64,000 nt of DNA from Syntrophorhabdaceae bacterium. Lineage in GTDB: Bacteria; Desulfobacterota; Syntrophorhabdia; Syntrophorhabdales; Syntrophorhabdaceae. Below the pieces are notes generated by a model, which saw nothing but the letters and a program-made list of their open reading frames with translations, was not told the origin of the DNA and did no database searches. The stretch spans positions 704,001 through 768,000 of the forward strand of contig CAXXUO010000001.1 in the NCBI GenBank assembly GCA_963666485.2, in the 5' to 3' direction. This document shows positions 55,333 through 57,616 of the stretch, one piece after another. The translations under genes were made by a program, and so were the position numbers. The number at the start of each line of letters is the position of its first letter. The first letter of the stretch is position 1.

Positions 55333-56022
55333 ATGGCAAAAAAAGAAACACTGGCAATGGTCCCCCTGTTCCGGGGGCTGTCTGAGAAACAGCTTGACCT
55401 GATGGGCGAGGCCTTCCCCAGGAAGCTGTACTCTCCGTCCCAGATCATCTTTTCGGAAGGCGAACCGGCTTCCGGGTTCTACATCCTGCTCTCCGGGAGG
55501 CTCAAGATATATAAGCTCTCTCTGGAAGGCAAAGAGCAGATCCTCCACATTATCGAGCCGGGCGAACCTTTTGCGGAGGTGGCGCTCTTCTCCGAAACGA
55601 AATTTCCCGCATATGCCGAGGCGATCGAAAAAAGCGAGGTCATGTTCCTGTCCCGCAACGCCTTTCGCCAACTGATCGGCAACGACCCATCCATAGCGAT
55701 GAACATGCTGGCGATCCTCTCGCACCGGCTCAAATATTTTACCCGCCTCATAGAAGACCTGTCCCTGAAAGAGGTCCCCCAGAGACTGGCCGCGTACCTC
55801 CTGTTCCTGGCGAAGCATGACGGCTCTTCGACATATTCGCAGGTGGCCCTTGGCATTTCGAAAGGTCAGCTCGCCAGCCTTCTTGGCACGATACCCGAGA
55901 CACTGTCGAGGATCATGGCAAAGATGGCAGGCCAGGGCCTGATAGACGTGCACGGCAGGAAAATAACGCTGCTCGATCCCACCACCCTTGAACTCCTGGC
56001 GCACGGGAAACGCACGCTCTAA
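55333..56022 (+). CDS. Crp/Fnr family regulator (HcpR/Dnr-like)
   Basis: cNMP-fold GKEQIL...FAEVALF; HTH LGTIPETLSR; no FNR Cys cluster. Confidence 0.9.
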   Translation: MAKKETLAMVPLFRGLSEKQLDLMGEAFPRKLYSPSQIIFSEGEPASGFYILLSGRLKIYKLSLEGKEQILHIIEPGEPFAEVALFSETKFPAYAEAIEKSEVMFLSRNAFRQLIGNDPSIAMNMLAILSHRLKYFTRLIEDLSLKEVPQRLAAYLLFLAKHDGSSTYSQVALGISKGQLASLLGTIPETLSRIMAKMAGQGLIDVHGRKITLLDPTTLELLAHGKRTL

Positions 56023-56028
56023 AAGACG

Positions 56029-56211
56029 GTTCAAGGTTCAAGGTTCAAGGTTCAGTGAAAAAAATAGAAACGGTTAAATTCAAAGAAAAGTGCCCGTTAA
56101 AATAGATTTTTCAAAGAACAATTTTTGTTAACTGAAGACGTTGTCTATAAAGATTCCCATCAATTTTTTTCTTTTGTTTTTCCCTTGAACTTTGAACCTT
56201 GAACCTTGAAC
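56029..56211. repeat. Inverted heptamer arrays (GGTTCAA)n / (TTGAACC)n around an AT-rich spacer
   Basis: Seen directly. Confidence 0.88.
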
Positions 56212-56225
56212 TATTTTTACCCCGG

Positions 56226-56253
56226 TTGACGCTTCTCAAACCGGTGTTATACT
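56226..56253 (+). promoter_or_regulatory. Sigma70 promoter TTGACG-16-TATACT (extended -10) overlapped by an FNR/HcpR-like palindrome
   Basis: TTGAC-GCTT-CTCAA at 56226-56239; TGtTATACT at 56245-56253. Confidence 0.65.
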
Positions 56254-56304
56254 TAAATTATATTTACGTGTACCGGCAGTATGCATATGAGGAGGTGATG
56301 ATCT

Positions 56305-56427
56305 ATGAAAAAAGTGGATGATGCAAGGATGCTGAAGAAGGAAGCCATGTTCTGGCGCGGCATCAAGGAAGCGCTTGCAAAGGACAGCACCAGGAAATGC
56401 CACAAATGAAAGTCCTGAAAGGGTTAG
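56305..56427 (+). CDS. Putative selenocysteine-containing RiPP precursor MKKVDDARMLKKEAMFWRGIKEALAKDSTRKCHKUKSUKG
   Basis: AGGAGGT RBS at 56290-56296; in-frame TGA at 56407 and 56416 in register with Cys32; TAG stop; SECIS-like hairpin right after; radical SAM/SPASM gene downstream. Confidence 0.8.
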
Positions 56428-56428
56428 A

Positions 56429-56446
56429 CGTTGCAGGTCTGCAACG
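56429..56446 (+). promoter_or_regulatory. Bacterial SECIS-like hairpin CGTTGCA-GGTC-TGCAACG
   Basis: Contains GTTGCAGGTCTGCA, matching the E. coli fdhF SECIS upper stem-loop as I recall it; starts 10 nt after the second TGA. Confidence 0.78.
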
Positions 56447-56455
56447 CGAATTGAA

Positions 56456-56502
56456 AACAGGCAGCCTGTATCGATCTTACAGATCGGGCTGCCTGTTCAT
56501 TT
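56456..56502 (+). terminator. Intergenic stem-loop (attenuator/mRNA stabiliser) between precursor and maturase
   Basis: AACAGGCAGCCTG...CGGGCTGCCTGTT followed by a weak T-tract (cattt). Confidence 0.65.
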
Positions 56503-56554
56503 GAGATCTTTCCCCCATGACCCGTACCGGGCGACACGCGAAAAGGATGCATTC

Positions 56555-57616
56555 ATGACCGAAGAATTGGAAAAGTTCGATTTTTTCATCCAGATGCACC
56601 TGACCGAGCGGTGCAACCTCTCTTGCGCCCACTGCTACCAGGAAGGCGCGGCGCCCCCGGAAATGTCGCTTACGGAAATTACCGGGGCGGTCAAGAACAT
56701 TGCGGATACGATAGACACGTGGTCCGGGATCTATGGCGTGCCATTCTCACCCAGTTTTAACGTGACCGGCGGTGAACCGCTTTTAAGGGCAGATCTCAAG
56801 GAGGTCCTTCACGTTATATCGGAACACGGCTTTGCGATCTTTCTTTTGACGAACGGGATCCTGATCGACAAAGATACATCGCGCATGCTTGCCTCGATTC
56901 CCGTCAAGGGGGTGCAGGTAAGCCTCGAAGGCCCCGAAGACATACACGACCTGATCCGCGGCAGGGGCAGTTTCGCGTCGGCCATCGACGGTGCGCGCCG
57001 CCTCCTTGATGCGGGCATCATTGTCACGTTCAATGTGACCCTCTCCCGGATCAATGCCGGGTATTTCCCGGACATGATAGCGCTCGCTGCTGCCACCGGC
57101 GTGCAGAGGCTCGGGTTTTCGCGGCTCGTCCCGTACGGGCGCGGATTGAACCTGGTCGACAAGATGCTGGGGCCGGAGGAGGTCCGGTCAATCTACGAGC
57201 AGGTCCTGTCCCGTCACATACCCGGTCTCGAGATCGTCACCGGGGACCCTCTCGCATCGCAGCTTAACGTCGGAAGCACAGTGACGGATCCCGGTGATTT
57301 TCCCTTAGGCGGATGCGCGGCCGGCATATCCGGCATCACGGTCCTTCCCGACGGGACATTGACGCCCTGCCGGAGGCTGGGCATACCAATCGGCAACCTC
57401 CTGAAGGATTCGCTTCGTGAGGTCTGGGCAAATTCGGATGTCCTCAATGCACTCCGCGACAAAACCGCATACAAGGGCAAGTGCTCAATGTGCAGCCGCT
57501 GGGCGGGATGCAGGGGATGCAGGGCGATCGCATACGCACATTCCCTGTGGCAGGGAAGAAGCGATTTCCTGGGGGAAGACCCGCAGTGTTTCATAGATGC
57601 GGGCGATGGGCAATAG
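56555..57616 (+). CDS. Radical SAM/SPASM domain protein, putative peptide maturase
   Basis: CNLSCAHC and TGGEP; SPASM GCAAG...TPC...CSMC...CRGCRA...DPQC. Confidence 0.9.
   Translation: MTEELEKFDFFIQMHLTERCNLSCAHCYQEGAAPPEMSLTEITGAVKNIADTIDTWSGIYGVPFSPSFNVTGGEPLLRADLKEVLHVISEHGFAIFLLTNGILIDKDTSRMLASIPVKGVQVSLEGPEDIHDLIRGRGSFASAIDGARRLLDAGIIVTFNVTLSRINAGYFPDMIALAAATGVQRLGFSRLVPYGRGLNLVDKMLGPEEVRSIYEQVLSRHIPGLEIVTGDPLASQLNVGSTVTDPGDFPLGGCAAGISGITVLPDGTLTPCRRLGIPIGNLLKDSLREVWANSDVLNALRDKTAYKGKCSMCSRWAGCRGCRAIAYAHSLWQGRSDFLGEDPQCFIDAGDGQ

Follow-up and report, generated by a model that had tools for sequence, protein, structure and literature searches.

Can a single RNA hairpin, placed past the stop codon of a very short gene, direct the insertion of selenocysteine (Sec) at two UGA codons? 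In the usual picture of bacterial Sec insertion, one hairpin serves one UGA, at a fixed spacing and inside the coding region. The question is raised by a locus in the window, the 64,000-nucleotide stretch of Syntrophorhabdaceae DNA to which all positions refer unless a contig is named; the stretch was matched without any base difference by contigs from four runs of one sample. A peptide of 40 residues is encoded at 56305-56427 (+), with a basic leader and the tail C-H-K-U-K-S-U-K-G when TGA is read as U. The TGA codons at 56407-56409 and 56416-56418 are both in frame with the ATG at 56305 and form codons 35 and 38, and the frame is closed by TAG at 56425-56427. The gene is followed by a SECIS-type hairpin (56429-56446, +), a long terminator-like or mRNA-stabilising hairpin (56456-56497, +) and the gene of a 353-residue radical SAM/SPASM enzyme (56555-57616, +).

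Upstream of the ATG, a Shine-Dalgarno-like site, AGGAGGTG, was found at 56290-56297 (+), 7 nt from the start codon. A putative promoter-like site of the sigma-70 type lies at 56226-56253 (+), composed of TTGACG, 16 nt and TATACT with an extended -10, with 10 of 12 consensus matches; a looser promoter-like pattern is present upstream in 39 of the 57 homologous loci described below. The AT-rich spacer upstream of the promoter is flanked by inverted tandem heptamers, three to four copies of GGTTCAA (56028-56055) and three to four of TTGAACC (56185-56212). Short repeats similar to these heptamers occupy other intergenic spaces in the genome and in the genus. The gene of a Crp/Fnr-family regulator (55333-56022) adjoins upstream, as it does in about eight close relatives, but not family-wide.

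The earlier note had drawn attention to the 14-mer GTTGCAGGTCTGCA at 56430-56443, and its position relative to the two TGA codons was confirmed: it starts 20 nt past the first and 11 nt past the second. The 14-mer, which we take to be letter-for-letter identical to the E. coli fdhF SECIS, was found once in the 3.77-Mb genome with both strands searched. It folds as part of a 7-bp stem with the loop GGUC at 56436-56439. The consensus bacterial SECIS is given as an apical loop of 3-9 nt on a stem of 4-16 bp, with a G at loop position 1 or 2 (frequently GG or GU), a UGA-to-loop distance of 16-37 nt and a minimum free energy of -7.5 kcal/mol or lower (PMC13188914). The corresponding features here were a 4-nt loop on a 7-bp stem, GGUC, distances of 26 nt from the first UGA and 17 nt from the second, and energies of -9.5 and -10.5 kcal/mol for the segments beginning at the two UGAs. 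As judged from the sequence, this hairpin (56429-56446) is likely to be a SECIS element and a candidate for SelB binding. It is not of the strict E. coli fdhF type, in which the upper stem carries a bulged U17 (PMC8659212), as the stem here is fully paired. The hairpin alone was not unusually stable (z-scores of -0.82 and -1.54 against shuffles), and an Rfam scan of 56000-56700 returned no SECIS family, just weak unrelated matches; the case against chance therefore rests on comparison. Within the genome, such a hairpin at that distance was detected for 7 of 3301 TGA-N6-TGA pairs.

Of 61 related genomes, 33 have the enzyme, as do 27 of 401 genomes across the phylum. It was also found in metagenome contigs, from which 80 loci, mostly distant, were kept. 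The peptide motif was present in 58 of the 67 enzyme loci with at least 40% identity, and in 57 after the removal of one duplicate; the full pattern is also present in three more loci, examined subsequently. The nine close loci lacking the motif comprise four at a contig end, one decayed copy and four (L026, L040, L072, L075) in whose long flanks no peptide was found. Two of the contig-end loci retain parts of the pattern, L022 both TGA codons and the hairpin, and L064 the hairpin. The decayed copy, L067, has a deleted leader and a hairpin abutting the second TGA and was not counted.

The search was also extended beyond the close relatives. No related peptide was found upstream of the distant enzymes (26-35% identity). 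Upstream of one distant SPASM enzyme (34%, L078) lies a small, unrelated ORF whose tail is a Gly/Cys-rich repeat, another candidate peptide system. A degenerate pattern run over the 401 genomes gave 25 matches; L151, L152, L162 and L168, which are not beside the enzyme and have neither leader nor hairpin nor enzyme, were dropped as chance matches, as was a pattern match in the genome G026. Viral contigs gave 151 pattern matches, none of which was confirmed. The peptide/enzyme family was absent from every curated library searched, and profile comparison of the enzyme and the peptide returned nothing.

Across the 57 loci, the first site was TGA in all and never TGC, TGT or TGG, and the second was TGA in 56. 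The exception is the TGC of L117, which has a frameshifted enzyme gene; this codon may reflect decay or an assembly error. The Lys codons following the UGAs were AAG or AAA in 47 and 10 loci at the first site and in 37 and 20 loci at the second, and the Ser codon between them was AGC in 25, AGT in 7 and TCC in 5 loci. An in-frame stop codon was located 2-4 codons past the second Lys in all 57 loci (TAA 25, TAG 16, TGA 16). The motif search required a Lys after each site, and the invariance of Lys is partly built in, whereas the codon variation and the stop position are not. By its synonymous Lys and Ser codons and its conserved stop position, the sequence past both UGAs behaves as coding. Among 21 aligned peptides, the KEAxFW motif of the leader is conserved, and E13, W17, K21 and C32 are invariant.

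The databases list the peptide in a cut form: C-x-K is the end of 86 of 87 homologues, and 78 of 82 representatives stop at profile position 34. The homologues are all called hypothetical, and their source names include Syntrophorhabdus sp. MAGs. Neither set contained an all-Cys homologue, and position 35 has no Cys anchor. The sole match over all 40 positions, P0152, has W at both sites and also in place of the stop; the simplest account is a table-4 gene call of the same UGA pattern, not a Cys form. The longer database forms were N-terminal over-calls which still end at C-x-K. Taken together, we hold with high confidence that both UGAs are recoded.

Homologues which keep the TGA codons also keep the hairpin, with compensatory changes in its stem. 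In 56 distinct rows, the six outer stem pairs were paired in 95.2% of cells, compared with 88.7% in shuffled and 21-65% in slid controls, and double changes were detected in five of the six. The pair closing the loop is Watson-Crick in all 57 loci (A-U 18, U-A 23, C-G 16) and changes at least 10 times on a midpoint-rooted FastTree tree of 56 enzymes, from which L081 was omitted as too short. A G occupies loop position 1 or 2 in 57 of 57 loci, and the hairpin was the sole helix found by RNAalifold. The features kept across the loci are the perfect stem and the loop G. The exact fdhF-like 14-mer core was present in 16 of 55 scored loci, the others varying in the loop and the closing pair, and by this count it is lineage-specific. 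The earlier explanation of the 14-mer by selection for SelB binding thus stands for a SECIS-type hairpin, selection on which is indicated by the covariation, but not for the exact 14-mer.

A weaker stem right after the first TGA (56413-56427, +, or about 56411-56425) had been pointed out as well. It can be drawn, with -1.4 kcal/mol and a z-score of +0.54, but it is not conserved and was rejected as a second SECIS: two of the pairs inside it fail to form in 49 and 43 of the 56 distinct rows, and its covariation was no better than that of slid controls. As the hairpin at 56429-56446 is the sole conserved structure available to either UGA, its use by both, as proposed in the earlier note, is the simplest reading, and we consider it probable. 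The description of the hairpin as lying wholly in the 3' UTR is likely right, but in this genome the radical SAM frame is open upstream through the hairpin, and the ORF from TTG 56375 is that frame extended across it. The extension is not kept in relatives. In 9 of the 57 loci (L058-L062, L037, L038, L041 and L117), the SECIS is located at or within the first codons of the radical SAM gene; the untranslated placement is therefore common, not required. In L059-L062, the enzyme ATG overlaps the UGA stop of the peptide gene (ATGA), which suggests translational coupling.

Whether one hairpin can reach both codons was addressed by distances. The determined UGA-to-loop G distances over the 57 loci were 24-32 nt for the first codon and 15-23 nt for the second, the spacer being lengthened in three lineages; both ranges fall within the consensus of 16-37 nt, save four loci at 15 nt. 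In single-UGA genes of the same genome, candidate hairpins were found at 17 nt (SelD), 18 nt (Fdh), 20 nt (one MvhD), 21-23 nt (HdrA) and 29 nt (thioredoxin) from the UGA; these calibrators were limited to recognisable genes, and their hairpins were chosen by the author's own scan and all lie within coding sequence. One MvhD gene had no clean hairpin. A genome-wide scan for E. coli-like hairpins missed real selenoprotein genes, and a self-BLAST for Sec/Cys pairs was noisy. The 29-nt hairpin of thioredoxin is intact in all 7 UGA-type copies, and it is broken in the 2 Cys-type copies picked up by the same pattern; protein constraint contributes to this conservation. In the E. coli SECIS, the distance from the UGA is fixed at 11 nt (PMC8659212), and a comparable strictness of spacing would disfavour the far codon 35.

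The calibrator genes were also recorded for themselves. The thioredoxin, with a U-G-H-C motif, is encoded at 519610-520038 of contig C1, and six other copies keep its candidate SECIS at 29 nt from the UGA. The same contig carries Sec-type genes with TGA at conserved Cys positions, namely HdrA and two MvhD genes (145787(-), 142800(-), 77734(+)) and a formate dehydrogenase (1319929-1321935(+)).

The terminal codon provides a further comparison. In 16 of the 57 loci it is a third TGA, 5-9 nt from the loop and aligned with TAA (25) and TAG (16) of the other loci. This third UGA is best read as a stop because relatives have UAA or UAG there; recoding of a UGA would thus depend on where it stands relative to the hairpin.

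The genome contains selA, selB, selD with an in-frame TGA, and tRNA-Sec(UCA). Of 49 genomes that carry the enzyme, 45 gave a selB match, a single one in 42 of these 45, and selB was not found in the other four, which are 85-95% complete. The assembly itself has two selB and two selA. The second selA (an open frame of 795 aa) and the second selB are located in positions 1-55000 of contig C3, where the GC content is 63-71% compared with 52-56% beyond and 55% for the genome; this 55-kb stretch is probably foreign, mis-binned or recently acquired DNA. One tRNA-Sec scored over the cut-off, the weaker matches coinciding with ordinary tRNAs, and cysS is present in one copy. About 3 kb from the tRNA-Sec gene, the translation of an ORF near 1390300-1390500 of contig C1 matches that expected from the reverse strand of the 3' half of tRNA-Sec; a small integrated element may have duplicated its attachment site here.

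The enzyme scored over the cut-off with Pfam Radical_SAM and SPASM. Among 17 aligned sequences, C20, C24 and C27 of the CxxxCxxC motif and seven C-terminal SPASM cysteines are invariant; an N-terminal recognition domain is absent. None of the best 25 NCBIfam models was over its cut-off: the best-scoring family model was AhbD (heme b synthase), with 154 against a cut-off of 500, and NirJ-type models ranked high, all far below cut-off. The AlphaFold model of the enzyme (pLDDT 86) gave SkfB, SuiB, ChlB, anSME and a CteB-type sactipeptide/thioether maturase as the best structural matches, with Z values of 24.6-26.8. SuiB, ChlB and anSME match equally well, and the fold therefore does not fix the chemistry. 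Modification of the adjacent peptide, at its C-x-x-U-x-x-U core, is predicted for the enzyme from the adjacency of the two genes in 58 of 67 close enzyme loci. The flanking genes vary: 9 loci have YceI, 7 a B12 radical SAM and 11 an AI-2E transporter. Within flanks of 1.5-2.5 kb, neither a conserved protease nor a conserved exporter was found, and a secreted product is therefore not supported by these short flanks.

The region between the peptide and enzyme genes was considered as a possible switch. The fold of 56400-56510, which includes the long hairpin, had a z-score of -4.82, and an arm starting with GC(A/G)G follows the SECIS in 48 of 57 loci. A strict terminator scan of the forward strand did not call the long hairpin. 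When the SECIS and the hairpin that follows it were searched for antiterminator pairing, no excess over shuffles was obtained (mean -0.3 kcal/mol over the 57 loci, with imprecise helix picking). The earlier suggestion that dual decoding ties the precursor to selenium supply as a special switch was not upheld: no switch structure was found in the 57 loci, and the dependence is not special, because truncation without selenium holds for any selenoprotein.

The following course of events would account for these observations. The SECIS at 56429-56446 would recruit SelB-GTP-Sec-tRNA twice in turn. With UGA35 in the A site, the loop would be 26 nt away and the hairpin still folded, and SelB would deliver Sec. 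Three codons on, UGA38 would be 17 nt from the loop with the stem still immediately outside the ribosome, and the same loop could bind another SelB complex. After three more codons, the stop would be 8 nt from the loop, and the stem, by then inside the ribosome, would be melted, so that even a UGA would terminate. A hairpin placed past the stop would be melted at termination only, and not run over between the recoding events. The insertion of Sec in E. coli fdhF was reported to be 30-40% (PMC4513850), and at such a rate per event about a tenth to a sixth of the ribosomes would finish; a strong promoter and the terminator-like hairpin could supply the excess of precursor mRNA. The enzyme might then bind the leader helix with KEAxFW and anchor a selenol of the core at the open site of an auxiliary Fe-S cluster, as Se-Fe binding at an open auxiliary site is described for PapB and Tte1186 (PMC10177961). 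It could make seleno- or thioether cross-links or SbtM-like oxidations, and we lean slightly to cross-linking.

Candidate dual decoding, with one SECIS serving both UGAs as Sec, is on the sequence evidence the probable reading, and four others were weighed against it. The first of these, which we regard as unlikely, is that the hairpin serves codon 38 alone and that codon 35 is read by means of a second signal of an unrecognised kind or by low-level SECIS-independent read-through. The 11-nt spacing of E. coli fits codon 38 exactly (PMC8659212), a SECIS-independent read-through of 5-8% was determined in an E. coli reporter (PMC4513850), and additional factors are considered possible for UXXU (PMC13582414). 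However, no second conserved structure follows the first UGA, the strict retention of UGA at the first site, never replaced by UGC, UGU or UGG, is hard to explain if it is not Sec, and the single-UGA thioredoxin of the same lineage keeps its hairpin at 29 nt. It is still less probable that one or both UGAs are read as Cys by SelC*/tRNA-ReC and SelB* via the same hairpin. The presence of two selB and two selA in the assembly would agree with such a reading, as would the enrichment of tRNA-ReC in genomes with UXXU hydrogenases (PMC13582414) and the occurrence of selC*/selB* in related deltaproteobacterial groups (PMC7609411). The second selA/selB pair lies, though, on the probably foreign or mis-binned stretch of contig C3, cysS is single, 42 of the 45 selB-positive carrier genomes have one selB match, and one tRNA-Sec was over the cut-off, a count which a divergent tRNA-ReC could escape.

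We give equally little weight to the view that the small gene is mainly a selenium-sensing leader, in which stalling at the UGAs controls the terminator-like hairpin and the radical SAM gene, the substrate of the enzyme being a different one. The order of promoter, short ORF with rare codons, long hairpin and enzyme is attenuator-like, and AhbD is the top family model with NirJ-type models high. Against this stand the antiterminator pairing, which does not exceed shuffles, the 9 of 57 loci which lack the long hairpin and have the SECIS at or within the enzyme start, the invariant E13, W17, K21 and C32 of the 21 peptides, expected of a recognised substrate, and the distance of every family score from its cut-off. 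The least probable reading, in our judgement very improbable, is that nothing is recoded, the product being a 34-residue peptide and the hairpin just stabilising the mRNA. This is the form given by the databases, and the hairpin alone is not unusually stable, but synonymous variation, frame and stop position are kept past both UGAs. Neither TAA nor TAG ever takes the place of the first "stop", while the terminal stop is free to vary; moreover, the loop keeps its G, and the spacings fall in a narrow range.

The decoding of both UGAs from one hairpin is thus the reading retained, and it can be extended to the whole system. Tentatively, the locus may represent a widespread, uncatalogued two-gene system of anaerobic deltaproteobacteria-like lineages, in which a di-Sec peptide is made via one untranslated SECIS, with a SelB reach of at least 15-32 nt, and receives C-Se cross-links from the enzyme; this complete picture, unlike the dual decoding, we consider less likely than not. 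If true, it would add a second class of selenium RiPP and the cleanest natural proof of a processive bacterial SECIS acting on several UGAs. With this product, selenium-containing modified peptides would gain a second family, one that gene callers cut at residue 34. At this locus the RNA signal is set apart from protein constraint, and natural controls are at hand: near-codon spacers of 15-23 nt, compensatory changes in the stem, and a third UGA which acts as a stop. The reach of SelB becomes a question for a reporter of about 150 nt, and dual decoding, if true, would help in making multi-Sec proteins in bacteria.

The concept itself is not new: single-SECIS decoding of UXXU (PMC13582414) and the post-stop SECIS of SaoC (bioRxiv 10.1101/2022.07.06.499078) precede it. 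The UXXU-type Group 4 [NiFeSe] hydrogenases likewise have two UGAs three codons apart and one downstream SECIS-like hairpin, and decoding from the single SECIS was proposed for them in 2026, in silico only and with a warning about tRNA-ReC (PMC13582414). In these hydrogenases, the SECIS lies inside a long coding region and is confounded with protein constraint, and tRNA-ReC often co-occurs (PMC13582414), whereas the hairpin described here is mostly free of coding constraint and is accompanied by the third-UGA stop control and by natural spacer variants. The SaoC Cys-Sec-COOH selenoproteins share a SECIS with a 7-bp stem and a GGU loop beyond the true stop, but have one UGA only and are lipoproteins unrelated to the present peptide (bioRxiv 10.1101/2022.07.06.499078). 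In E. coli fdhF, too, the SECIS stem is short, is capped by a G/GU apical loop and lies about 11 nt past a UGA (PMC8659212); here, in contrast, the hairpin is past the stop, has neither a bulged U nor a conserved lower stem, and stands 17 and 26 nt from two UGAs.

On the side of the peptide and its enzyme, the nearest likeness is the thio(seleno)oxazole RiPP SbtA/SbtM, a Sec peptide likely with at least two Sec beside a radical SAM/SPASM enzyme (PMC9204691). The Sec of SbtA is placed in a GGUG/SGUG motif (PMC9204691), whereas the present core is C-x-x-U-x-x-U in a Lys-rich tail. None of the 21 peptides matched TIGR04081 (SbtA), and the GGUG motif is absent from them. A TIGR04081 search of the genome itself gave no match, but no control matched either, which makes this search uninformative; against NCBIfam the 21 peptides had only weak unrelated matches of one or two members each. 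With the SbtM model (TIGR04082, cut-off 350), the enzyme scored 112.6 bits, and the first ~200 positions of the profile are missing from it. The thioether SPASM maturases SkfB, CteB-type 5wgg, PapB and Tte1186 share the seven-Cys SPASM pattern and a Cys-spaced substrate, and the fold of the enzyme was matched to SkfB with Z 26.8 and rmsd 3.1 over 277 aligned residues and to 5wgg with Z 24.6 and rmsd 3.9 over 306. The identity to these maturases is 19-24%, however, the enzyme here has no N-terminal recognition domain, and the peptide core has no acidic acceptor residues. The 2026 catalogue of 119 prokaryotic selenoprotein families includes, in its accessible part, UxxU families and a selenobacteriocin, and no C-x-x-U-x-x-U peptide there (PMC13188914). 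The literature searched, which lay largely outside the subscription journals, held no report of the peptide family and no experimental test of bacterial dual decoding. In comparison with these systems, the locus presents a known SECIS logic in an unusually clean, two-codon and mostly untranslated arrangement, within an uncatalogued pair of seleno-peptide and radical SAM enzyme.
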